Source: a virus. Taken from it: a stretch of 64,000 bases of DNA. The notes under the pieces are model-generated. The model did no database searches. It saw only the letters and a program-made list of their open reading frames with translations, and was not told where the DNA came from. The stretch's first letter is position 1, and each line of letters begins with the position of its first letter. A program made the translations under genes and the position numbers. The stretch spans positions 32,001 through 96,000 of IMG/VR virus record IMGVR_UViG_3300020048_003770. One strand, 5' to 3'. Below are positions 12,569 to 55,905 of this stretch, in pieces.

Positions 12569-13485
12569 TGAAATATAAACTAAAAATAAATGGTCGTCAA
12601 ATTAATAAAAACGGCGGAATATTGGGTATGAGTTATCTTTTGACTTGCTTGAATGAAAGCCCGTTGTTTGAAATTGAATATCATCGAGAGTTTATTGATT
12701 CCAACAGAGGGAATGCAGGCTCCGTAATATACTTTGAAGATAAGAAAATATATTTGGATTTATGGGAATATGCGACTCCATCTCATACCGATATAGTATA
12801 TAACTCCAATTTCGATCTAATAATTAAAGCTCAACACAAAAAAATGTCACTTCAGGCGTATAGTCGATATTGTGACCGTAAAAAATTAATGTCAATAGAC
12901 CCAAGTTTAAGAGGACAGTGGCTTGAAAAATTTGTTCCTTGGACTTTTTTCCCAAGCAAAATGATGGATAGACTTAATGTTGAACGAATAATGACAGAAC
13001 CAAATAAATATCCTATTGAAAGAGATTGTTTTTTTTGCGGAAGGCATTGGAAAGGAAGACTTAAAATAATTGATTCGTTAAAAAAACAGGGGATAGAGTG
13101 TGAAGCAAGCGATCAATCAGGGGAGGTAGGCTTTAAAATTAGCGATGAGGAATTTCTCCATAAAATGCAAACAAGTCGATATGGACTCGTATTGGCAGGA
13201 AGAGCAACCCCGATAACCGATCCTAAGAACAGAAGAGAGATTGATTATCTTATGTTAGGGAAGCCATTACTAATAAATTACAAACCATTTTATTACAACG
13301 AATTTGAAGCGGGGAAGCATTATATATACATAGATGAAAATACTGATATAAAATCATTGGATAAAATGTATAATATAGATGAGATAGCAAAGAATGGGTA
13401 TGAATGGTATTTGCAAAACGCAACGCCAGAAGCAATCCCAAAAACGTTTGTTCAAATAATGCAAGAAAAACTAATAAAGGAGTAA
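12568..13485 (+). CDS. GT-B glycosyltransferase (CgeB/exostosin-like C-terminal domain)
   Basis: FFCG, SRYGLVLAG, RREIDYLMLG, FEAGKHYI, IAKNGYEWY. Confidence 0.65.
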   Translation: MKYKLKINGRQINKNGGILGMSYLLTCLNESPLFEIEYHREFIDSNRGNAGSVIYFEDKKIYLDLWEYATPSHTDIVYNSNFDLIIKAQHKKMSLQAYSRYCDRKKLMSIDPSLRGQWLEKFVPWTFFPSKMMDRLNVERIMTEPNKYPIERDCFFCGRHWKGRLKIIDSLKKQGIECEASDQSGEVGFKISDEEFLHKMQTSRYGLVLAGRATPITDPKNRREIDYLMLGKPLLINYKPFYYNEFEAGKHYIYIDENTDIKSLDKMYNIDEIAKNGYEWYLQNATPEAIPKTFVQIMQEKLIKE

Positions 13486-13488
13486 GCT

Positions 13489-13758
13489 ATGAATGAATTA
13501 AAAGAGTGCCAATGTAATTGTAATGAAAACCCATGTTCATGCGATTCTCGCGATCCAGAATACCTTGAACTCCAAAACAAGTATTTAAGAAATTCAGAAG
13601 ATGAAAGAAAAATTCGCAATAAAACAAATCGAATTGAACAGGCAAGATCGAATTTATATGCTTTGTTGGGATTTGTCGGCATTAATGTTGCGTCGGAAAT
13701 GGTTATTGAGTCTATTGAAAAAAACATTAAAATTATGGACGAGGTTGAAAAACTATGA
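13489..13758 (+). CDS. hypothetical protein
   Basis: AAGGAG RBS; Cys-rich N-terminus. Confidence 0.55.
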   Translation: MNELKECQCNCNENPCSCDSRDPEYLELQNKYLRNSEDERKIRNKTNRIEQARSNLYALLGFVGINVASEMVIESIEKNIKIMDEVEKL

Positions 13759-13791
13759 GACCATCCGACATATACAGCCAGCAAATATTGT

Positions 13792-14037
13792 TTGAAGAGT
13801 GTAATGAGCGCCAAAATGGAGATAGATAACGCCCCGGCTGACCGGGCGGCGGTAGCCGATACGGTCAAGCCGGTTGTTCGCCGGGACTGGTATCCATCTG
13901 GAACGATGGAACAAGCCTTGTCGCTTGAAGATCCCCCCGAGTTCCACGAAGGCGATACGGCGAACTGGATATGTCCCGCAACACCAGAAGCAATCCCAAA
14001 AAAGTTTGTTCAAATAATGCAAGAAAAACTAACATAG
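13792..14037 (+). CDS. chimeric ORF: GC-rich foreign segment fused to the duplicated GT C-terminus
   Basis: ends ATPEAIPKKFVQIMQEKLT, nearly identical to the C-terminus of 12568..13485. Confidence 0.4.
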   Translation: MKSVMSAKMEIDNAPADRAAVADTVKPVVRRDWYPSGTMEQALSLEDPPEFHEGDTANWICPATPEAIPKKFVQIMQEKLT

Positions 14038-14046
14038 GAGATAAAA

Positions 14047-14519
14047 ATGATTATTAAATTCATTCCAGAAACAGCATCGGAAAAGAAAGATTTTGAAAAT
14101 AGAGGTATTGACGATGTCACTCATTATGGCGTTAAAGAGTACATGATATTCGGAAATAAAATGGACGATGACGGTGGAATTGAGGACTTCCATGAATGGC
14201 ATGGGGGCATGGGGCTTATAAATTTTTGTTGGGAAGTCTTAAGTGTTTTTATGAAGTAATTAATGATAATCGTCGCGGACAACAAAACTCATCTCCCCTT
14301 CGAGTAGTTGATAACAAAACGGCAAAAAGTAAAGTTGCTCCTAATATGACGCCTATGATTAAACGTGGTGAGATAGCTCCTAATATTACTCCTCTTAATA
14401 TTGTTGATTTTGCTGGAGCTAAAGCAGAGAATGATGATGGCGATGAAGGTGTCCTCTCGCACCAGCCGCTAACACTTGCCGACTTTGCCGAACGAGATAT
14501 TAACGACGAAACTTGTTGA
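14047..14519 (+). pseudogene. hypothetical gene split by an 8-bp tandem duplication
   Basis: gcatgggg twice at 14199-14214; removing one copy fuses 14047..14259 with 14196..14519 (..HEWHGAYKFLLGS..). Confidence 0.7.
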
Positions 14520-14609
14520 AAAATAGTTCTTGATTTTTAAAATATTTCTGTTACAATTGGAAAATAAATAAAGGAATATTTAACAGAAATATAGAAACTA
14601 GATTGGAAC

Positions 14610-14702
14610 ATGAATATGAACAAGCAAATAATAGGTATAGGAATAGCGGGAGCCTGCGGCGGAGCTGCAAGGCTACGGACTTTCTATGTCTGTTTATGCT
14701 AA
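14610..14702 (+). CDS. attenuator leader peptide MNMNKQIIGIGIAGACGGAARLRTFYVCLC
   Basis: short ORF after promoter motifs; its 3' part overlaps the antiterminator strand; codons 7-20 are 13/14 Ile/Gly/Ala. Confidence 0.7.
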   Translation: MNMNKQIIGIGIAGACGGAARLRTFYVCLC

Positions 14703-14765
14703 ATGATATAACAGATTAAAAAATAGAGAGTCCGATAAACTAATGGTTTGTCGGACTTTTGCTTT
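14676..14765 (+). promoter_or_regulatory. transcription attenuator 1 (antiterminator/terminator)
   Basis: cggactttcta(14676) pairs tagagagtccg(14724), and tctgtt pairs aacaga; mutually exclusive with terminator agagtccgataaac/gtttgtcggactttt plus T-rich tail. Confidence 0.75.
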
Positions 14766-14970
14766 ATAAGGAGAAAATGGGTAGGAAAAAGAGTCAAAAA
14801 AGGAAAAACACGAATGTCGTAAAGAACGAAATGGTTTTTCTTAGGTGCTTTGAATTGCTGGGAGCATAAACGGTTCTGTCTTCTCTAAAACAAAGGCGGA
14901 ACCGAATGAAACAGGAAGGAAACAATTTTATGAATATCAAACGCAAGGACTGTATAAATGTGAAAGATGG

Positions 14971-15213
14971 ATGTCTGGTAAACTCGATCCGTACTTTTTT
15001 GTTCTTAAACATGGTAAACATCAATTTGATTTAATAACTAGCGAATATGAGCAGAGATACGAAAACGGTTTGGATTGGGATGGATTATATCAGCTATGGA
15101 TGGATTGGAAAGGAGATAGATGGTTGTTGAGGCACGTTTTGAAATGGATGAAAAATTTGCCAGATTGGATAGATAAGGAAAGTGAAGAAATAGATTTGAA
15201 TATGGGGGCGTAG
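14971..15213 (+). CDS. hypothetical protein
   Basis: ORF track; its stop lies inside the tRNA-Ala 5' end. Confidence 0.45.
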   Translation: MSGKLDPYFFVLKHGKHQFDLITSEYEQRYENGLDWDGLYQLWMDWKGDRWLLRHVLKWMKNLPDWIDKESEEIDLNMGA

Positions 15214-15277
15214 CTTAGTTGGCTAAAGCGTCTGATTTGCATTCAGAAGATCGTCGGTTCGACCCCGGTCGCCTCCA
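15204..15277 (+). tRNA. tRNA-Ala(UGC), CCA not encoded
   Basis: acceptor gggggcg/cgcctcc with G3:U70; anticodon arm tctga-tttgcat-tcaga; T-loop ttcgacc. Confidence 0.9.
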
Positions 15278-15371
15278 AGTTGACAAGCAGATTACTTCCA
15301 CGTAGTGTCAACTGGTAACTAAGAAATTAGGCTAAAATCTGCAAGTAACAAAAGAGAATAGAAAGGATAAT

Positions 15372-15620
15372 ATGAAGAAAGTTAATACATGTTTAACGGT
15401 ATATGATATGTTGGGACAGGCGTTGAACCATGAATGCAGCGGATCTAAAAGGTTTTCGCCTGATAATACCAAAGAGGATGTCGGAATAAAATGTCTGGAA
15501 TGTGACGACTCATTCAAGATATCCATTCGTAGACTGCGTAATACTATGAGAGATCCAAGATTGACTGAATTAGTTAAACAATATAAATACATGGATTTGT
15601 TGAAGAAGTTTGTTATTTAA
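15372..15620 (+). CDS. small zinc-ribbon-like protein
   Basis: HECSG..CLECD; AAGGA RBS. Confidence 0.55.
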   Translation: MKKVNTCLTVYDMLGQALNHECSGSKRFSPDNTKEDVGIKCLECDDSFKISIRRLRNTMRDPRLTELVKQYKYMDLLKKFVI

Positions 15621-15626
15621 AAATAT

Positions 15627-15701
15627 GCATCTTAGGTGTTTATGGACACACGCTAGGCTTCCAACCTTGAGTAATGGGATCGTTACCCATAAGATGCTCC
15701 A
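15627..15701 (+). tRNA. tRNA-Gly(UCC)
   Basis: acceptor gcatctt/aagatgc, U73-CCA; anticodon loop cttccaa. Confidence 0.85.
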
Positions 15702-15720
15702 ATTTTAAATTAAGGATATT

Positions 15721-15963
15721 ATGTTTAAATCATATAAGATCTTAAAAGAATGCAAATTAGAAGAGTCTAATTTGATTCAAATGTTGCGTGAAAATAAAGA
15801 AGGATTGACTATAGATAGGATTATGTTAATGGGTTTTGACAAATGGAACTCGCTTAACAAATTATTGGCTATGCAGAAGGTTAAAGGGATTAAACAAAAA
15901 AATGATCCTTTTGTTAAAGAGACTGTTATCGTTTCATGCGGGAGTAACTCACCAATCTTATGA
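15721..15963 (+). CDS. hypothetical protein
   Basis: ORF with AAGGA RBS; runs into the following tRNA-like gene. Confidence 0.5.
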   Translation: MFKSYKILKECKLEESNLIQMLRENKEGLTIDRIMLMGFDKWNSLNKLLAMQKVKGIKQKNDPFVKETVIVSCGSNSPIL

Positions 15964-16022
15964 ATTGGGCAGTATAATTAGAGTAATGGTGCATGTTGGT
16001 TCAAGTCCAATCTCCCGTACCA
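15938..16022 (+). tRNA. atypical tRNA-Ile(UAU)-like RNA (D-arm truncated, long variable region)
   Basis: acceptor gcgggag/ctcccgt plus ACCA; perfect anticodon arm ccaat-cttatga-attgg; T-arm ttgg-ttcaagt-ccaa. Confidence 0.6.
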
Positions 16023-16094
16023 ATTTTATTCAGAAATTCTATTTGTATTTTGTATAATAGAAATGTTGAAATAAAACATAAATTGGAGGTAATA

Positions 16095-16970
16095 ATGAAT
16101 GCAGATAGAACCGTTGAAGCGTTAAAGACTATATTGGATGGTAAAACGCCTGAAGAAATAGACGCTGTTGTCCGTGATTTGAAAGAAACATTAGATCAAG
16201 CTGCGGCAGATATAAAGGGAGAAATGGATATCGATTCTACTGCTGTAGTTAGTGATTTGAAAGATGAAATTAATCAATTAAGCACTATTGAATCTGCTAA
16301 AAACTTCTCTGTTCCTGATTGCGTTATTCCTTCAGAGTCGGATGTCAAAATTAAATCGTGCAATAGAGAGACCGATATGGCTTCCGTAGAAAAACGGTTT
16401 AAGTCTGTTGTAACTTTGGATTCCTCTTTTGTATGCGCTCCAGAGGGTTTGTTTGGAGATAAGTTGGAGTTTACTTGCGCTCCTATCGGAACGAGTTCTT
16501 GCAACAAAGGTGGAGACGCTTTTGAAAATTTAGAAGTTACTGAGTTAAATGAAGAGTTGTTGAGTAAAATTGAACGGGAAAGTTCGAGTGATGAAATACA
16601 ATTATTTACAGAACCGATTCAGCCTTTTGCAACTAGATTATTCAATAAAAAATTATCCAAAGTAGAATCTGAAATATATTCTAAATATAACGTTAAAAAG
16701 AATTTGAAAAAGATAAAAACAAAAGAAAAAATAAACGATATATTAAGGAAATTCCATTTATCTAGACTTTTTTCTTTTTCTACAGATTCTATTGACAAGC
16801 ATGAAAAACCGATTTACGATGCAATACAGGAAGTTATGTTGAAAGTAAACCACTTAGACGATGATTCAATTAATGAAAGATATGAGTTAGTCGCTTCTAA
16901 AATAGACAGTTGTAGACAAGCTGCTATAAGTAATAGAGAAGAACCCATTCTATATGCTCATCCATTATAA
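16095..16970 (+). CDS. hypothetical acidic/coiled-coil protein
   Basis: GGAGG RBS before MNADR. Confidence 0.6.
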   Translation: MNADRTVEALKTILDGKTPEEIDAVVRDLKETLDQAAADIKGEMDIDSTAVVSDLKDEINQLSTIESAKNFSVPDCVIPSESDVKIKSCNRETDMASVEKRFKSVVTLDSSFVCAPEGLFGDKLEFTCAPIGTSSCNKGGDAFENLEVTELNEELLSKIERESSSDEIQLFTEPIQPFATRLFNKKLSKVESEIYSKYNVKKNLKKIKTKEKINDILRKFHLSRLFSFSTDSIDKHEKPIYDAIQEVMLKVNHLDDDSINERYELVASKIDSCRQAAISNREEPILYAHPL

Positions 16971-16973
16971 ATC

Positions 16974-17324
16974 ATGAGAGAACCTTGTTTAGATTGTACG
17001 ATTAAGCATTTGGGACAGGCATACGCTTTACATGGAGAACTTAAGCAAGGATATCCGAAACATCTTTTGGGCGTTATTGGACATTTGGCGGAAGCTTCAG
17101 AAGAATGCATGTCTATGTCAAAAGAATTAGCTGATAAAATACGCCAATATAGATTATTACTATTAGAAAATGCAGTAGATATTGTGTTTAATGAAAAAGA
17201 TATTGATATTCCATATTTTGATTTATTCATGGAAGTCATGCAAATGAAAAAAGAGATCGGTTGCGGCAATTGTTCGAAAGCTTCGGATGATTTCAAAGAG
17301 AGATTGAAAAATAAATTAAAATAG
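16974..17324 (+). CDS. hypothetical Cys/His metal-binding protein
   Basis: PCLDCTIKHLGQA..GY..H..GHLAEA. Confidence 0.6.
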   Translation: MREPCLDCTIKHLGQAYALHGELKQGYPKHLLGVIGHLAEASEECMSMSKELADKIRQYRLLLLENAVDIVFNEKDIDIPYFDLFMEVMQMKKEIGCGNCSKASDDFKERLKNKLK

Positions 17325-17397
17325 TTCTTGATTTTTAAATTCTATATTGTATAGTCTAAATATCGTTTAAGAAAAAACAAAGAAATGGAGGTACATT

Positions 17398-17676
17398 ATG
17401 GCAGATGAAATGAATCAGTTGGATATTAATGAAGTTCGTAGAAATGAAGTTATTGTTACATTGGATGGACGTGATATTGCAACGCCTATGGGTTCTCTTG
17501 GGGTATCTATGGAATCAACTCCTAGAGAAATTCTAGATGCTGTTGGCGGTATTATCGAGGAAGCGGAAGGAACTCGCGACGGCTATCAGGATGCTTATGG
17601 CGATTTTACTTACACCGTTCGCAAGGCAATGAATTCAAATACTATTTATGTATATCCTAAGCCTGTTGCTGGATGA
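17398..17676 (+). CDS. ubiquitin-like (beta-grasp) protein with C-terminal Gly
   Basis: 92 aa, ends IYVYPKPVAG-stop (ThiS/MoaD-like terminal strand); first gene of the operon with the JAB protein, ThiF nearby. Confidence 0.65.
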   Translation: MADEMNQLDINEVRRNEVIVTLDGRDIATPMGSLGVSMESTPREILDAVGGIIEEAEGTRDGYQDAYGDFTYTVRKAMNSNTIYVYPKPVAG

Positions 17677-22058: not shown

Positions 22059-22192
22059 GGGGAAGTAGCCAAATGGAAAGGCACTATTATTCGGAAATAG
22101 CAAACAGCGATTATTACTTAAATTGTTTAATAGCAATTTCTTATCTAAACGCTTACAAACTTTTGGGGGTTCGATTCCCTCCTTCCCCACCA
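22059..22192 (+). ncRNA. tRNA-like RNA 1 (loop attcgga, UCG) with a ~60-nt module in the variable loop
   Basis: ggggaag/cttcccc plus ACCA, D-arm gcc..ggc, arm ctatt/aatag, T-loop ttcgatt; own TTGATT-N17-TATAAT promoter. Confidence 0.8.
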
Positions 22193-22282: not shown

Positions 22283-22418
22283 GGAGAGGACGCCTAACGG
22301 TAGGGCACTATTCAGTTAAAATAGCAAAAATACAGCGATTATGCCTTCAATTGTTTAACCGCAATTGCTTTATGAACGCTTACAAACATATTAGGTTCGA
22401 CTCCTAAACTCTCCACCA
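22283..22418 (+). ncRNA. tRNA-like RNA 2 (loop cagttaa, GUU) with the same variable-loop module
   Basis: ggagag/ctctcc plus ACCA, D-arm, arm ctatt/aatag, T-arm ttagg-ttcgact-cctaa; own promoter. Confidence 0.8.
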
Positions 22419-22427
22419 CTTTTAATT

Positions 22428-29682: not shown

Positions 29683-29760
29683 ATGTATATTAAAACGAAA
29701 ACAGTAGAAAAAGCAACGGTATTCAAAAAAACCGTTATGGGCTTATTCTGTTTTGTTTAA
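29683..29760 (+). CDS. attenuator leader peptide MYIKTKTVEKATVFKKTVMGLFCFV
   Basis: AAGGA RBS after a TTGATT-N17-TATAAT promoter; codons 4-18 are 12/15 Lys/Thr/Val. Confidence 0.75.
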   Translation: MYIKTKTVEKATVFKKTVMGLFCFV

Positions 29761-29810
29761 GTACAAAATAGATTTTTAAAAGCCCGTAAGTGTTACTTGC
29801 GGGCTTTTTT
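29739..29810 (+). promoter_or_regulatory. transcription attenuator 2 (antiterminator/terminator)
   Basis: gggctt..tctgttttgt pairs acaaaataga..aagccc; mutually exclusive with terminator aaaagcccgtaag/cttgcgggctttttt. Confidence 0.8.
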
Positions 29811-32026: not shown

Positions 32027-32812
32027 ATGAAATTAAAATTTTTAGGAGTTGGTGGAGCTTTTTGTGATTCAAATCAGTATCAGTCTAATTGTGCGATTGA
32101 AATAGATGATAAATTGTTTTTAATTGATTGTGGGTCGGATATTAGATTCTCTTTGAAAGAACAATATCCACTTATAAATAATGGCAATATTTCTGATTAT
32201 GTTAAGTGGGTTTATATTTCTCATTTGCATGGAGATCATTGTCACGGATTGGAATGGTTAGGATATTGTACTTACTTTAATCCATCAGCCAGTAAGCCTA
32301 TTCTAATTGGAGATAGTAATGTCATTCATTCGTTATGGGATTATACACTGAAAGGTACAATGGGCGATGTAAAAGGTAAAGAGTTAAAGTTGAATGATTT
32401 CTTTGAGATTATGGATTCTGATTGTTCAAATCGAAATCTTATGATTGGGGATAAAGAGCAAATGTTATTGACGTTAGTTGAATCTCCTCATGTTGATCCT
32501 TATAAAAAGTCATTTGGATTATTTATTGAGACCCCACGCAGAAAAACGTATTATACTTCCGATGTCAATGATTCTAATATGGTTGTCAATAAAAAATATT
32601 ATGAACATGCGGATATTATATTTCATGATTGCGAGACATACAAGTTTCATTCAGGCGTTCATGCTCATTATGAATCGCTTAAAAATTTGCCATATAATAT
32701 AAAGGAGAAAATTTGGTTGTATCATTACAGTGACGATGCGATAGATAAATATGATCCGGTTTTTGATGGGTTTAGTGGATTTTGCAAGAAAGGGGATTGG
32801 TTTCAGATATGA
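32027..32812 (+). CDS. MBL-fold metallo-hydrolase, Apyc1/RNase Z-like
   Basis: FLGVGGAF, LIDCG, SHLHGDH, LWDYTLKG, YTSD, FHDC, VHA..L, LYHYSD. Confidence 0.85.
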   Translation: MKLKFLGVGGAFCDSNQYQSNCAIEIDDKLFLIDCGSDIRFSLKEQYPLINNGNISDYVKWVYISHLHGDHCHGLEWLGYCTYFNPSASKPILIGDSNVIHSLWDYTLKGTMGDVKGKELKLNDFFEIMDSDCSNRNLMIGDKEQMLLTLVESPHVDPYKKSFGLFIETPRRKTYYTSDVNDSNMVVNKKYYEHADIIFHDCETYKFHSGVHAHYESLKNLPYNIKEKIWLYHYSDDAIDKYDPVFDGFSGFCKKGDWFQI

Positions 32813-43816: not shown

Positions 43817-44047
43817 ATGGCAGAGGGATTTATAGAAAAAATTGTAATTGAGGATGAATGGACTAGTGGCGGTGAACAGTTTAGGTTGATTGATGTTGGT
43901 GCCGGTCCAATGCGTTTGCAGGTTCTCAAAGATGGAGAGTGGGTTAAAGAAAGCGAACATTATGAGTGGGGAGTTTTAACCCATAGGATTAAGTCACTTG
44001 CGGCAATTACAAACAATTTTATTAGCGACGGAGGAGACGTTTTCTAA
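43817..44047 (+). CDS. hypothetical protein
   Basis: GGAGG RBS; promoter upstream. Confidence 0.55.
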   Translation: MAEGFIEKIVIEDEWTSGGEQFRLIDVGAGPMRLQVLKDGEWVKESEHYEWGVLTHRIKSLAAITNNFISDGGDVF

Positions 44048-44069
44048 AAAGACATTTGAAAGGGGAATT

Positions 44070-44975
44070 ATGGGCGACAAGTTAAAAGAAATAAGTAAAA
44101 TGCTATCGTTGGTTCTAAGGCATGATCCGAAGAAGATTGGCATAGAATTAGACAATAATGGGTGGACAAGTGTTGACAATTTGATCACAAAGGTTAATCT
44201 ATCTTTTAATGGTCGATACTTTATTACAAAAGATATACTTGACGAAATCGTTAGAACAAACAACAAGAAGCGTTTCGAGTATAGTTCTGATGGGTCAATG
44301 ATTAGGGCAAGACAGGGACATTCTGTTTCTGTTGATTTGGGCTATAAACCAGTTACTCCTCCAGAGGTCTTATATCATGGAACGTCCGAAGATGTCGTTG
44401 ATTCTATTTTCGAGAATGGAATTGAAAAACGAAGTCGTCACCATGTCCATCTTTCGGAAAATCATGAAACCGCTATGGCTGTAGGTAAGAGACATGGAAA
44501 GCCTTGTGCATTGACGATAGATTGCAAGAGTATGGTCGCGGATGGATATGAATTTTTCAAGACGGATAACGGAGTCTGGTTAGTAGATCATGTTCCGTCT
44601 ATTTATATCTACTCTGAATTACGATTTAAGTCAAAATCTAAGCAAAGCAACGAAAGAATTCAAAGTTATTTTAACGAAACAGAATCTGAAATTGAAAAAA
44701 AATTAGAAAAAGATGATGGCATAAGCAGGTATAGGTTCGAACAAAATCCTGCTGAAAGAATTTTCGTTGAAGAATTTATGGAACAAGATAAGTGGAGTAA
44801 TACTTTGGAATATATATTGTCCAGCTATTCTAATATAAGACAAGATGTAACAGATGAACAAAGAGCTGTTGCAATGACGATTATTCAGTGGATGGGTTCT
44901 CCTTGTGGTCAATCGTTCCTTCAAGTAGTTGCAGAAAGATGTAAAAAAGAAGGATGTAAGTTGCGAGGTTTTTAA
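44070..44975 (+). CDS. kptA: RNA 2'-phosphotransferase (Tpt1/KptA) fused to an extra C-terminal domain
   Basis: SKMLSLVLRH, NKKRFE, IRARQGHS, LYHGT, RHHVHLS, NGVWL. Confidence 0.92.
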   Translation: MGDKLKEISKMLSLVLRHDPKKIGIELDNNGWTSVDNLITKVNLSFNGRYFITKDILDEIVRTNNKKRFEYSSDGSMIRARQGHSVSVDLGYKPVTPPEVLYHGTSEDVVDSIFENGIEKRSRHHVHLSENHETAMAVGKRHGKPCALTIDCKSMVADGYEFFKTDNGVWLVDHVPSIYIYSELRFKSKSKQSNERIQSYFNETESEIEKKLEKDDGISRYRFEQNPAERIFVEEFMEQDKWSNTLEYILSSYSNIRQDVTDEQRAVAMTIIQWMGSPCGQSFLQVVAERCKKEGCKLRGF

Positions 44976-45313: not shown

Positions 45314-45673
45314 GGGAGCGCTAGGAATCGATTGGCGTTTGAAAAAGTATTATTGCATGCAGAAGATCATGGCTGGCTTCTATAAATATCCATGAAAAAC
45401 AAGTAAACGGCGAAAGTCTTAAACTTGCTGCCTAATTAAAGGTAGCCAGAAACGGAGCAAGATAGTCTTGGTAGCTCTTAGTACTGTTGATTACAAGGCG
45501 GCGATTTGATTAAGCCTAATGGTCATGGCAAGAACGGGAAGACGTTCTGCGACTCATAATAAGCAATGAGAAGGTTTCTTTTGTTGAGCCTTTTAAATCA
45601 GCACAACAAGCATGTGAAGAAGTAATATCGTTTCTCGCACAACACGGGAGTTCGACTCTCCCCGCTTCCACCA
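45314..45673 (+). ncRNA. ssrA: tmRNA; tag (A)GESLKLAA at 45409-45435
   Basis: gggagcg/cgcttcc with G3:U70 plus ACCA; gcatgc/gcatgt helix; T-loop ttcgact; tag ORF ending LAA-stop. Confidence 0.92.
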
Positions 45674-51792: not shown

Positions 51793-54700
51793 ATGATTGA
51801 ATTTACTGGCGAAAAATATGTTAATCTGCACAACCATTCATATTATAGCGCATTAGATGGATTATCTTCTCCTGAGGATATGGTTGATGCCTGTATCGCT
51901 AATGGTTCAAGAGCTTTGGCAATTACAGACCATGGAACTTGTGGCGGATGGTATAATTTTCAAAAAGTATGTCTAGCTAAAGGTGTAAAACCTATACTTG
52001 GCAATGAAGTATATATTTCTCCAGACCACACTTCTGTAGACCCTAAAGACCCACGTTATCATCTAGTTCTTTTAGCTAAGAATCATTTAGGTGTTCAGAA
52101 CCTCATGGAACTATCAACTATCGCAGAAACAAAAGGTAAATATAAGAAGCCGCGTATTGACTTTAAATTATTACAAGCTCATCACGAAGGGCTAATATGC
52201 ATGAGTGCTTGTTGCATTGGAGAATTGCCGTCTAAGCTATGGCAGGGGGATAATGATGGCGCTGTCAAGATGGCTAATGAATATAAGGATTTATTTGGCG
52301 ACGATTACTATATTGAAATCATGATGCATAAATACAATCAGAATGCACAAGAACAAGAAAAAAGAGAAAAAGTTCTTGCTAAACAATTGTATTCATTAGC
52401 GAAGAAACTGAATATAAAAACGGTTTGCAGTAACGACGCTCATTACGCTAATCGGTCAGATGCACCTTATCATGACGTTATGTTGTCAATGCAAACTCAT
52501 GATCATATTAAAAATCCAGATCGTTTTACATTCAACGGAGAACAGTTCTATTTGAGACCATATGAAGAGATGTATGATTTATATAAGAGTGCGCCTGAAA
52601 TGTTACTTCATACTGTTGAAATAGCGGAGAAGATAGAGAGTGATGCGATATTGTTGCCTTCAAAAGATTTGCTTCCGATATTTAATGTTCCGCAAGGGGT
52701 TACTAGTGAAACTGCTTATTTAAAGGAATTAGTTAAAGAGGGTATGAAGTTACATGGTTTCATTAACGATCCAATATATAGAGAACGTATAAAGATGGAA
52801 ATGGAACTTATTGTAAGATGCGGATTCGTGCGATATTTCTTAACTTTGTGGGATATTATAAATTATGCGAAACAACAAGGGGTTCGCACCGGAATTGGTC
52901 GCGGAAGCGGAGCGGGTAGTTTGTGTTTGTATTGTTTAGGAATCACGAAACTAGATCCGATTAAGTATGGTTTATTGTTTGAACGATTCATTAATCCGGA
53001 ACGTGTAAGTCCGCCAGATGTAGATATTGACTTTGATTATTCCCGTAGAGATGAGATATTTGACTATATCATCAGAAAATATGGGACTGATTATTGTTGT
53101 AAAATTGGCACATACAATACGTTTAAAGCTAAGGGGGCGATTAGATACGCAGCCAAAGCATTAGACATAGGCAATGATTGGGAAACATATCAAGCTGCCA
53201 AGAAACGAAATCCAAATGCAAAAATAGAAATGACCAAGAAGAGTCTGGATTTGGCTGATTTTATCGCTAAACAGATTCCAGAGGTTCCAGGTACAACAAT
53301 CGAATCAGCTTTGAAAGATGATGAATCGTTCCGTAGTGCTATGCAGAAATATCCTAAGCTTTTAGATGCAGTAAGACATGTTGAGAACACTGTATCTTCT
53401 GCTGGCGTTCATCCTGCTGGTATTATTATCTGCAAAGACCCTATTGCCAAACATATCCCCTTACGTGAATCTAAGGGTGCGATATGTTCTCAATTCGTAA
53501 TGTCTGAGGTAGATGAGTTGGGATTGCTTAAATTGGATATGCTTGCTCTAAAGACATTGACGGTTATTGAAGATACTGTCCAAATGATTAAAAAGCGATA
53601 TGGAATTGATATTGACATTGACAATTTAGATCCAACAGACAAAAATGTTTTTAAGTTGTTTAATGGCGGATATAAAAATATGGACAATAGGGGTATATTC
53701 CAATTTGAAGCGCATGGCATTTCTAAACTATTAAAAAGTATTAGAGTGGATACGTTCAATGATTTGGTTGTTTGCAACGCCCTCTATCGTCCTGGTCCTT
53801 TGGGCGCAGGAGTTCATGAGTTATATAGCGACTACAAGCATGGTCGTAAAAAGATTGAATATTTGCATCCAAAGATGGGAGAGGTGCTAAAAGATACCTA
53901 TGGGATTATGTGTTTTTCAAAGGATCAAATAGTTTATACAAATAATGGTCCAAAATGTATTGAAGAAATATGCAAGCAACCGGTGTATTGCTTGGACAAT
54001 GGTAAATTAAACAAATATCCTTCTGTTAATGGGGCGTTTAAAAGTGGAGTGCGAGAAATTTTCGAATATACGTTGTCGAATGGAGCTATTATAAAAAGCA
54101 CTAACGACCATCCAATTTTTAATGGAGAAAATTATATTGCTATGGATGAAATATTTTATAAAAAATTACCTATCCATTATACGTTGGGGAATATAAAGGA
54201 TTCAACCGAGAATGAAAAAATGGAGAAGAAAGCTTATTTATGGGGGGCTTTAATCGGCGACGGGACTACGAAGCCTTCAACTCCTATATTGTGTGTTGGT
54301 AAAAATAAAAGTTATGGCGAAATGGTAATAAACTTATTTTCCGATGTATATGGGGAGGACGGTGACGCAAATTTGTTTTATTCTACAAGATCTTGGTATG
54401 TAAGATTTTCTTTTAAAAGTAATTCTTGCAAATGGGGAACGAATAAAACTAATCAATTAAAGAATGAACTTGAATCTATGAATTTAAGGTGTTTGTCCAT
54501 TGATAAATTTTTGCCGTTTGACAGTCTTAAACCAAATCGTCGAATCTATTTATCGTTGTTGGCAGGGCTTGTAGACACTGACGGCAGTATACAAAAAGAT
54601 ATTTATTATTCATCGTCAAGTAAACAGTTGTTAATTGATGTTGAATATGTTTTATGGAGGCTTGGATATACGACATACAGAAGTCATCATATGGTTCATG

Positions 54701-55905
54701 TGTATGAGAGTATTGACCTATTTAATGAACTTCAGCCGTATCTTATTAATAAAAAAGGTGCAAATCGACTATATTGCAATGGAGGCAATATTCGTTTGAA
54801 TTCAAAAATGGTTGCTGAATTGCTAAAAAATAAAATAGGCAATATGTCGGTTCGAAAGTTTTGCGAGATAAACAAGTTGAATAGATGTACCGTTATGAGG
54901 ATTATGTCGCAGAAGAATACATGGTGCAAAAAAAGCGGCGTCGAAAGAGTATTGAATAAAGATGAAATTAATGCTTGCAAATGCATTTTTGTTGAGCGTC
55001 GTAAGTCATTGGGGATGCAGGATGTATATGACTTAAGTATGCCACATGACGATCACAATTTCATTGTTAATTCAGGCGTTTCTGTTCATAACTGTTTTCA
55101 AGAAAATATTATGAAAGTTGTTCAGGTTCTTGCTGGATTCACTTTAGGACAGGCGGATTGGCTCAGAAAGGTTATTGGCAAGAAAAAGCCAGAACTTATA
55201 AAGAAAGAAAATCTTGACACTTTATTTATAGAGGGTTGTAAAAAGCATTCTGATATCGACCCGAAAGTTGCAAAAGCTATATTTGATCAGATTGAATATT
55301 TCGGTGGATATGGCTTCAACCTATCCCACGCGGCGAGCTATTCCCTGATTTCTTATCAAACAGCTTGGCTTAAAGTTTACTATCCGCTTGAGTATATGTG
55401 TAATCTTTTGTCTTCGGAAATAAATAACAGCGACAAAGGATTTAAATTAAACTCTTACCTAAGTGAAGCACGGAGAATGAATTTAGTTGTTAAAGGGGCA
55501 GATATTAACAAGAGCGGTCTAAAATATAGTATCGCCAGTTTTAGAGATGAAATTTCTGGAGAAGAAAAGGATGGGATTAGAACGCCTTTGACGATTTTAA
55601 ATGGGGTTGGCGAGAAAGCGGTAGAAAGTATTGTTGCAAATCAACCTTTTGCCAATTTAAAAGAGTTTTTGCATTCAGTTGATACTAGAAAAGTTACTAG
55701 TCGGGTGTTTACCGCTTTAGTAGAAAACGGATGCATGAGGGACAGTTGGGGGATTGGAGATGAAGCTTTGTTGAATCAATATGTGGATGTAAAGGCAGAA
55801 GTCGATAAGGAAAAGAAACAGAAGAAGAAAAAGGAAGAACAAATGGATCAATATGGAGGTGTTTCAATATTTTCTGCATTTGGTTCTGAAGGATTAGAAA
55901 TTTAA
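51793..55905 (+). CDS. dnaE: DNA polymerase III alpha subunit (family C) with intein
   Basis: PHP HNHSYYSALDG, AITDHG; GRGSGAGSL; PPDVDIDF; GVHPAG; KLDMLAL; YGFNLSHA. Confidence 0.97.
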   Translation: MIEFTGEKYVNLHNHSYYSALDGLSSPEDMVDACIANGSRALAITDHGTCGGWYNFQKVCLAKGVKPILGNEVYISPDHTSVDPKDPRYHLVLLAKNHLGVQNLMELSTIAETKGKYKKPRIDFKLLQAHHEGLICMSACCIGELPSKLWQGDNDGAVKMANEYKDLFGDDYYIEIMMHKYNQNAQEQEKREKVLAKQLYSLAKKLNIKTVCSNDAHYANRSDAPYHDVMLSMQTHDHIKNPDRFTFNGEQFYLRPYEEMYDLYKSAPEMLLHTVEIAEKIESDAILLPSKDLLPIFNVPQGVTSETAYLKELVKEGMKLHGFINDPIYRERIKMEMELIVRCGFVRYFLTLWDIINYAKQQGVRTGIGRGSGAGSLCLYCLGITKLDPIKYGLLFERFINPERVSPPDVDIDFDYSRRDEIFDYIIRKYGTDYCCKIGTYNTFKAKGAIRYAAKALDIGNDWETYQAAKKRNPNAKIEMTKKSLDLADFIAKQIPEVPGTTIESALKDDESFRSAMQKYPKLLDAVRHVENTVSSAGVHPAGIIICKDPIAKHIPLRESKGAICSQFVMSEVDELGLLKLDMLALKTLTVIEDTVQMIKKRYGIDIDIDNLDPTDKNVFKLFNGGYKNMDNRGIFQFEAHGISKLLKSIRVDTFNDLVVCNALYRPGPLGAGVHELYSDYKHGRKKIEYLHPKMGEVLKDTYGIMCFSKDQIVYTNNGPKCIEEICKQPVYCLDNGKLNKYPSVNGAFKSGVREIFEYTLSNGAIIKSTNDHPIFNGENYIAMDEIFYKKLPIHYTLGNIKDSTENEKMEKKAYLWGALIGDGTTKPSTPILCVGKNKSYGEMVINLFSDVYGEDGDANLFYSTRSWYVRFSFKSNSCKWGTNKTNQLKNELESMNLRCLSIDKFLPFDSLKPNRRIYLSLLAGLVDTDGSIQKDIYYSSSSKQLLIDVEYVLWRLGYTTYRSHHMVHVYESIDLFNELQPYLINKKGANRLYCNGGNIRLNSKMVAELLKNKIGNMSVRKFCEINKLNRCTVMRIMSQKNTWCKKSGVERVLNKDEINACKCIFVERRKSLGMQDVYDLSMPHDDHNFIVNSGVSVHNCFQENIMKVVQVLAGFTLGQADWLRKVIGKKKPELIKKENLDTLFIEGCKKHSDIDPKVAKAIFDQIEYFGGYGFNLSHAASYSLISYQTAWLKVYYPLEYMCNLLSSEINNSDKGFKLNSYLSEARRMNLVVKGADINKSGLKYSIASFRDEISGEEKDGIRTPLTILNGVGEKAVESIVANQPFANLKEFLHSVDTRKVTSRVFTALVENGCMRDSWGIGDEALLNQYVDVKAEVDKEKKQKKKKEEQMDQYGGVSIFSAFGSEGLEI
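53911..55092 (+). mobile_element. 394-aa intein with LAGLIDADG homing endonuclease in dnaE
   Basis: YGIM|CFSKDQ..T.DH..LWGALIGDG..LAGLVDTDG..VYDLS..SVHN|CFQE. Confidence 0.95.

Follow-up and report, generated by a model that had tools for sequence, protein, structure and literature searches.

A putative codon-matched leader-peptide attenuator ahead of a tRNA operon in an uncultured huge phage

Why should a short open reading frame (ORF) with a nearly unbroken run of Ile, Gly and Ala codons lie before an intrinsic terminator and genes for tRNA-Ala(UGC), tRNA-Gly(UCC) and an Ile(UAU)-like RNA? The question is raised by positions 14519-14765 of a 64,000-nt stretch of viral DNA (the window; bases 32001-96000 of the 161,288-bp contig of IMG/VR record IMGVR_UViG_3300020048_003770), and positions below are those of the window unless the contig is stated. 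An earlier note, made from the letters alone, had put forward a leader-peptide attenuator with codons matched to the tRNAs under its control. That proposal is supported by three-state folds of the RNA, by covariation, by a frame that stays open in eight sequences and by a leader composition that tracks the tRNA set. The segment 14519-14765 is probably a ribosome-mediated (leader-peptide) transcription attenuator gating a phage tRNA operon, the predicted parts of which are:

14519-14557, + strand: promoter, a conserved box with -35 TTGATT at 14530-14535 and -10 TACAAT at 14552-14557
14616-14702, + strand: leader ORF, 28 codons and a stop, peptide MNKQIIGIGIAGACGGAARLRTFYVCLC, 3' of the promoter at 14530-14557
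14628-14669, + strand: sensor codon run, 13 of 14 codons Ile(ATA), Gly or Ala; 14630-14660 doubles as region 1
14664-14694, + strand: region 2, pairing with region 1 in the free RNA; its core, 14676-14686, is the antiterminator 5' arm
14724-14741, + strand: region 3, antiterminator 3' arm and terminator 5' arm, the two pairings being mutually exclusive
14745-14765, + strand: region 4 and U-tract, the terminator 3' arm running to 14759 and followed by TTTTGCTTT

The leader had been placed at 14610-14702. The ORF is present, but its start moves, as the ATG conserved in relatives is at 14616, giving a 28-aa leader, and the in-frame ATG at 14610 is absent in three of the relatives (L001, L002 and L008). 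Counted from 14610, codons 7-20 read as originally described: ATA ATA GGT ATA GGA ATA GCG GGA GCC TGC GGC GGA GCT GCA, with 13 of 14 for Ile, Gly or Ala and ATA at all four Ile positions. A density of nine Ala, Gly or Ile residues in ten is reached by this leader alone among the 844 small ORFs in the genome. Nine of 17 sensor codons are strictly cognate to the anticodons UGC, UCC and UAU, against a background of 8.5% (p ~3e-6), and 13 of 17 share the amino acids of the operon (p for the codon run ~3e-6 to 4e-7). Moreover, ATA makes up 37% of Ile codons in the long ORFs of the phage, compared with four of four in the leader (chance ~0.02). A reading of the peptide as a lipoprotein or signal peptide (IAGAC) was ruled out, position -3 being unfit for a lipobox and the Cys being Gly in L008.

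The competition between antiterminator and terminator that the earlier note had described is borne out by the pairing. Regions 2 and 3 can form an 11-bp helix (14676-14686/14724-14734), and the terminator is a 15-bp stem (14727-14759) followed by the U-tract. The upstream complement to the terminator 5' arm has a pairing energy of -18.9 kcal/mol, compared with -9.5 +/- 1.9 kcal/mol in dinucleotide shuffles, none of 1000 of which was as low. In addition, the Ile and Gly codons at 14630-14643 are predicted to pair with 14681-14694, and this 1:2 hairpin would complete the three-state layout (1:2, 2:3 and 3:4) of the trp type; it is seen in every single-sequence fold, both of the window and of the relatives. 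In the fold of 14590-14790 the free RNA adopts the long 1:2 hairpin and the 15-bp terminator (-54 kcal/mol, z = -6.3). The two conformations were compared under a ribosome mask, in which the 5' part is forced to be single-stranded up to a chosen position and the remainder is refolded. A mask reaching 14650-14660 yields the antiterminator (14676-86/14724-34) in place of the terminator, extended by an inner hairpin and favoured in the full-length RNA as well; once the mask extends as far as the stop codon, the terminator alone forms. In these models, folding with a ribosome mask follows the 1:2 / 2:3 / 3:4 logic of the trp attenuator.

The promoter is of the sigma-70 type, with a 9/12 match to the consensus and a TG ahead of the -10, and its box is invariant in seven related sequences. 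The box, TTCTTGATT-N-TTAAA, is found on the + strand at 14527, 17325, 28143, 29605 and 39956, heading the present element (attenuator 1), attenuator 2 and three other transcription units, and probably represents one phage promoter class. Attenuator 2 (29683-29810) had been called unrelated in sequence and alike in architecture, and this holds: it shows the same behaviour in mask folds and has only the promoter box in common with attenuator 1.

Near relatives were reached through the protein encoded 3' of the operon (16095-16970), which has eight relatives in a large protein collection, their contigs being syntenic with the window. In L005, L006 and L007 the 145 nt of 14616-14760 carry no substitution and one single-base indel in an A-run, while the DNA flanking the attenuator is 78-89% identical to the window. 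Compared with the window, L001 and L002 have a Leu codon CTA replaced by TTG, a silent double change, one different base in the terminator loop, and a G to A transition through which a G-U pair becomes A-U in the 2:3 helix and the 3:4 helix alike. The L008 leader has four amino-acid changes, two of which (Gly to Ile and Cys to Gly) remain within the Ile/Gly/Ala set. In one lake-metagenome contig, 263 nt of attenuator show 6 differences and 337 nt of the next ORF show 44; the attenuator differences listed lie in spacer or loop or turn G-U into A-U, and one alters a codon in the leader tail. The few differences in near relatives, compared with the flanks, indicate that the attenuator is more constrained at the nucleotide level than the neighbouring genes, and overlapping coding and structural constraints would be expected to yield exactly such conservation. 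A scan of metagenome contigs with an alignment of the 82-aa ORF of the operon returned one short locus, already among the relatives.

Distant relatives were reached through the upstream 305-aa protein, for which over 100 relatives were found. Of the contigs carrying them, five long ones (L015-L019; 44-61% protein identity) were taken, and in all five a short ORF is followed by an intrinsic terminator and a tRNA operon, a few genes downstream of the 305-aa homologue. Each leader is ATG-initiated, GGAG or AGGA stands 8-10 nt before a start codon, and under the same masks their different sequences adopt the same three-state folds. The leader frame is open in all eight diverged homologues, compared with three to seven stops in frame +1, and the stop codon falls between regions 2 and 3 in every relative. 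Covariation was assessed on a sequence-only MAFFT alignment of eight sequences. The antiterminator is 95.3% paired on this alignment, with 7 of 11 pairs changed on both sides; no shuffle of 500 scored as high, and controls slid along the alignment reached at most 57% paired. The terminator is 93.5% paired, with changes on both sides in 7 of its 15 pairs.

Leader composition follows the tRNA content of each operon. The L018 leader run, VEIAIAVVAVAVVA (Val/Ala/Ile), precedes tRNAs Val(UAC) (two copies), Ala(UGC), Ala(GGC) and Ile(UAU), with Gly tRNA absent, and this leader has 11 codons cognate to its own tRNA set compared with five for Ala/Gly/Ile sets. The L019 run, IVGKAIAVAKTTGKTV, samples Ile, Val, Gly, Lys, Ala and Thr; its operon has tRNAs for all six, and 14 of 17 codons are strictly cognate. 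In L015 and L017 the leader is of the Ile/Ala/Gly type and the tRNAs are those for Ala, Gly and, in canonical form, Ile(UAU). Per locus, 9-14 of 17 codons are strictly cognate (p 3e-5 to 1e-8).

A scan of the same genome for leader and terminator units before other tRNA clusters, which the earlier note had proposed as a check, gave four more cassettes, each matching its own tRNAs:

Leader rich in Asn and Gln, then tRNAs Asn, Gln and Asn
Leader rich in His, Ile, Pro and Glu, then tRNAs His, Ile(GAU), Glu and Pro(UGG)
Leader rich in Phe, then tRNA Phe
Leader rich in Lys, Thr and Val, then tRNAs Lys, Val, Thr and Thr

In a leader-by-tRNA matrix of the five cassettes the observed diagonal beats the other 119 permutations, and in four of the five the leader is the sole ORF, or one of two, at its score among the 844 small ORFs. 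The match extends to isoacceptors: the Ala/Gly/Ile cassette, with its UAU RNA, uses ATA only, and the cassette with tRNA-Ile(GAU) has ATC and ATT in its run. Ranked by the upstream complement to the 5' arm, the five tRNA cassettes stand 1, 2, 3, 5 and 8 among the ~24 strong terminators in the genome. Apart from the cassettes, a strong 5'-arm complement (-15.6 kcal/mol) belongs to just one terminator, which lies outside the window, at contig 103855-103897 on the minus strand, and could be a further attenuator without a link to an ARAGORN-called tRNA.

Several observations weigh against a leader-peptide attenuator at 14519-14765. The Shine-Dalgarno sequence of the window leader is weak, being GGA only, 9 nt before ATG 14616, and that of L001 is weaker still. 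When the mask ends at 14670 or later, the terminator is favoured in the full-length RNA, and mask folds reflect thermodynamics, not kinetics. Only nine of the 13 Ile/Gly/Ala sensor codons are strictly cognate; the other four are Gly or Ala codons, as by strict wobble UCC does not decode GGT or GGC and UGC does not decode GCC or GCT. A UAU tRNA is missing from the operon of the nearest relatives (L001, L002 and L008), yet their leaders keep four to five ATA codons, and the UAU RNA of the window, which has no D arm and carries G37, is a doubtful ATA decoder. The 1:2 helix is 74% paired when the register of the window is projected onto the alignment. The base for covariation is thin, comprising eight sequences of approximately five independent lineages, and the structure comes from one of the eight.

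Leader-peptide attenuators respond to the pool of charged tRNA, so that amino-acid starvation also stalls the ribosome, as is established for trp and his. The element could accordingly be a sensor of Ile/Gly/Ala starvation resembling those of ilv and thr, with the tRNAs as passengers and the small proteins as the real cargo, and conserved ORFs are indeed present in the operon. This explanation is unlikely, as leader composition tracks anticodons to the level of isoacceptors (ATA with UAU versus ATC and ATT with GAU; GCC with GGC; AAG with CUU), the protein cargo differs among relatives (HNH nuclease, HTH protein, RNA ligase or small ORFs), and an extra tRNA would bring no relief of amino-acid starvation.

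The long hairpin and terminator of the free RNA also resemble many small RNAs (sRNAs), and 14565-14765 might instead be a structured non-coding sRNA gene or a plain insulating terminator, with incidental codons and with tRNAs supplied from other promoters or by leak. Very high nucleotide conservation would also fit such an element, the weak Shine-Dalgarno sequence of the window agrees with it, and a match to TTGACA-N18-AATTAT at 15836-15865 stands ahead of the Ile-like RNA. It is nevertheless improbable, slightly more so than a starvation sensor, in view of the frame open in eight diverged sequences as against the stops in frame +1, the GGAG or AGGA before the start in distant relatives, the leader amino acids that shift together with the tRNA set, and the match of five cassettes to their own tRNAs at a score that 1 of 120 permutations reaches. 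The antiterminator, needless for a plain terminator or an sRNA, covaries. Moreover, tRNA-Ala in L001 and L008 begins ~10 nt 3' of the U-tract, which leaves no room for a promoter of its own and makes read-through the only evident source of transcription; in the window, a simple scan found no promoter between the terminator and tRNA-Ala or tRNA-Gly.

Least probable is a T-box-type direct RNA sensor or a protein-mediated antiterminator, in which uncharged tRNA or a phage protein binds an untranslated leader: terminator/antiterminator pairs do occur in T-box and protein-dependent attenuators and anticodons acting in trans might in principle recognise a codon run, but there is no specifier loop or T-box motif, a permissive Rfam scan of 14500-16100 gave tRNAs and weak terminator-driven matches only, with no T-box or other cis-regulatory family, and the conserved start, Shine-Dalgarno sequence, open frame and placement of the stop in every relative point to the ribosome as the sensor.

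For the leader-peptide attenuator, we infer that the leader is translated, that read-through is conditional and that a physiological trigger governs it. Transcription would begin at the promoter (14530-14557) and a ribosome would translate the 28-codon leader. Fast decoding of the Ile(ATA), Gly and Ala codons would bring the ribosome to the leader end, where it would cover region 2, allowing the 3:4 terminator to form and transcription to stop at ~14765. A ribosome lingering on the sensor codons (14628 to ~14660) would instead cover region 1 and leave region 2 free; region 2 would take region 3 before region 4 is synthesised, so that the terminator cannot form. Read-through would then yield the small ORFs, tRNA-Ala(UGC), tRNA-Gly(UCC) and the UAU RNA. 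Production of the Ala, Gly and Ile-like tRNAs is therefore probably confined to times when ribosomes are slow on the sensor codons. As the products of the operon are tRNAs decoding the sensor codons, the loop would be one of negative feedback and self-limiting, holding the supply of decoders at the level required by phage codon usage, and the circuit would be switched on whenever the matching host tRNAs become scarce.

Codon compensation, loss of host tRNA and defence nucleases are all possible triggers, and a choice among them would go beyond the sequence. The earlier note had suggested modular sensors of tRNA depletion, with the small ORFs as candidates for counter-defence, and such roles may be envisaged. 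An RNA ligase as the first gene behind the L019 attenuator, and Tpt1/KptA elsewhere in the window, hint at tRNA damage. A tentative elaboration, which we consider possible but doubtful, is a damage-triggered circuit for tRNA replacement, in which anticodon nucleases or phage-induced host shut-off deplete isoacceptors and only the matching tRNA block is induced. Co-transcribed genes for repair or counter-defence, such as the L019 RNA ligase and the conserved small ORFs here, would then be induced too and, as a corollary, ATA would be decoded by the UAU RNA in spite of its missing D arm.

The operon behind the terminator comprises the following features:

14777-14869, + strand: ORF, 30 aa, basic, with an AAGGAG Shine-Dalgarno sequence; the first frame 3' of the terminator, and the same ORF follows the L017 terminator
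14971-15213, + strand: ORF, 80 aa, overlapping the start of tRNA-Ala by 11 nt; 96% to L017 12673-12915 and 48% to L015 12729-12992
15203-15278, + strand: tRNA-Ala(UGC), called by ARAGORN; 64.7 bits on Rfam
15279-15345, + strand: non-coding element, 65 nt, directly 3' of tRNA-Ala, nearly invariant, with nested inverted repeats
15372-15620, + strand: ORF, 82 aa, Cys-rich, kept in all relatives; 84-91% identity in five loci and 94% to L017
15627-15701, + strand: tRNA-Gly(UCC), called by ARAGORN; 36.6 bits on Rfam
15721-15963, + strand: ORF, 80 aa, its end overlapping the Ile-like RNA; 95% to L003 468-728
15938-16022, + strand: tRNA-like RNA, anticodon loop CUUAUGA (UAU, reads ATA), G37, encoded CCA

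The two tRNAs named in the earlier note are thus present as described. Its Ile(UAU)-like RNA stands in part: it scores 31.1 bits on the Rfam tRNA model at 15938-16019 (gathering score 29), but is atypical, lacking a D arm and carrying a 23-nt insert. It was not called by the bacterial search of ARAGORN, nor with intron or low-threshold options, and only the metazoan-mitochondrial mode gave a different 66-nt reading, one that was not trusted. L009 has a near-identical copy, the L010 copy is split by an insert, and a canonical tRNA-Ile(UAU) is found in the corresponding operon of L005-7, L015 and L017-19. In L010 (1027-1300), an insert of ~190 nt lies in the UAU tRNA-like gene right after the anticodon. 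Over its first ~53 nt, this insert is reverse-complementary to the ~53 nt that open the contig of the present genome (bases 1-100), where the sequence abuts the apparent 3' half of another tRNA, which suggests, from sequence, a small mobile element targeting tRNA anticodon loops in either orientation.

The invariant TATAAGGAG 3' of the terminator was considered as an internal promoter and rejected, with no acceptable -35 at a workable spacing. It consists of the Shine-Dalgarno sequence and start of the 30-aa ORF, common to L017 (window 14768-14869; L017 12467-12570), and the Shine-Dalgarno sequence and ATG are invariant in near relatives. Between terminator and tRNA-Ala, 14777-15200 forms a mosaic insert, which L001 and L008 lack; in these two the ATGGG of the 30-aa ORF runs straight into tRNA-Ala, in what looks like a recombination joint. 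In a comparison of window 14777-15620 with L017 12470-13257, the operon is likewise mosaic: identity is 96% for the ORF at 14971-15213 and 94% for that at 15372-15620, but only 53% for the flanking 305-aa protein, and the L017 leader differs. It seems that these phages trade tRNA-operon modules separately from the attenuator.

The 65-nt element occurs in the window, L001, L005 and L008 and is absent in L017. Its two interleaved inverted repeats, AGTTGAC/GTCAACT and GCAGATT/AATCTGC, make a pseudoknot possible; no Rfam family matched it and no covariation was seen, the copies being nearly identical. The ORFs at 14971-15213, 15372-15620 and 15721-15963 gave no significant match to a Pfam or PHROG family. 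The protein cargo behind homologous attenuators varies, with an RNA ligase (PF09414) as the first gene in L019 (12863-13477) and, in L005, L006 and L007, genes for an HNH endonuclease and an HTH protein lying between those for the tRNAs (L005 2293-3219 and 3995-4675). In these same three loci an Ala(UGC)-like RNA (L005 2085-2165) takes the place of tRNA-Ala; it has acceptor-stem mismatches and no ARAGORN call, and may be a decaying or unusual tRNA.

The source is an uncultured huge phage. Its contig has 34% G+C and carries 18 tRNA genes by ARAGORN and a transfer-messenger RNA (tmRNA) by Rfam, and the contigs of relatives reach up to 525 kb. Genes identified in the window by Pfam include a DnaE-type polymerase with an intein, RecA, a RecD2-like helicase, Tpt1/KptA, an Apyc1-like metallo-beta-lactamase and two TnpB. 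At 43998-44975, 45314-45673, 32027-32812 and 51793-55905 lie Tpt1/KptA adjoining the phage tmRNA gene, the Apyc1-like metallo-beta-lactamase and the DnaE polymerase, the intein of which is of the LAGLIDADG type. Two long tRNA-like genes lie at 22059-22189 and 22283-22420, the first being 131 nt long with 46.9 bits on the Rfam tRNA model; they have in common an insert of ~65 nt in the variable region, a motif of which partly recurs just 5' of tRNA-Leu 22904. No close isolated phage was found, and a distant blastn search of 13400-17400 against 50,697 phage records matched tRNA genes only. A search of IMG/VR returned no relative of the 533-aa neighbour protein and no copy of the promoter box.

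The his leader attenuator is established as a reporter of the decoding speed of single codons (PMC4046918). If the present reading is true, the phage measures decoding speed codon by codon and makes each tRNA block on demand, and such direct feedback on the translation apparatus would explain how dozens of tRNA genes are managed in huge phages. Each leader would state the codons that the phage treats as limiting, making it directly testable whether phages carry tRNAs for codon compensation or for escape from tRNA-cleaving defences. In addition, leaders can offer clues to what unusual tRNA-like RNAs do, the UAU RNA being one, and the cassettes, as compact modular sensors of isoacceptor supply, could serve as reporters.

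Among known systems, leaders that sample several amino acids include those of ilvGMEDA, sensing Ile, Leu and Val, and thrL, sensing Thr and Ile; trpL, hisL, leuL and pheL are further enterobacterial examples of leader peptides. The element at 14519-14765 resembles them in its short leader ORF, predicted to be translated, its regulatory codon run, the predicted 1:2/2:3/3:4 alternatives, the intrinsic terminator and the sampling of several amino acids, and, as judged from sequence, its predicted mechanism agrees with that of the multivalent enterobacterial attenuators in every structural feature tested. However, those leaders regulate biosynthetic enzymes, whereas the genes here are for tRNAs and small ORFs, and the output would feed back on the very decoding that is sensed. 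The phage element also has no sequence or Rfam relation to them, the match being at the level of codon and anticodon; none of the Rfam Trp, His, Leu, Thr and Phe leader families matched 14500-16100 in the permissive scan, even at E up to 10. The Escherichia coli pheST operon, with its pheM leader, is a parallel in that leader-peptide attenuation acts on a component of the translation apparatus, although it controls a synthetase and senses one amino acid, compared with the tRNAs themselves and several codon families here. T-box riboswitches likewise couple the state of a specific tRNA to the choice of terminator or antiterminator before translation-related genes, but bind uncharged tRNA directly without a ribosome, whereas here a translated ORF is the predicted sensor.

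Clusters of tRNA genes in phages (T4, T5, mycobacteriophages and huge phages) are read as compensation for codon usage or as replacements for tRNAs cut by host defences. The present operon is similar in supplying tRNAs for codons that the phage often uses and in the RNA-repair genes nearby (Tpt1/KptA here, the RNA ligase in L019). To our knowledge, known phage clusters have been described under ordinary phage promoters, and leader-peptide attenuation is textbook knowledge for amino-acid biosynthesis and for a synthetase, not for tRNA genes. Full-text literature searches that covered attenuation, leader peptides and the tRNA genes of phages or viruses gave no account of a codon-matched leader-peptide gate on tRNA genes. 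What would be new here is a known attenuation mechanism with tRNA genes as its output.

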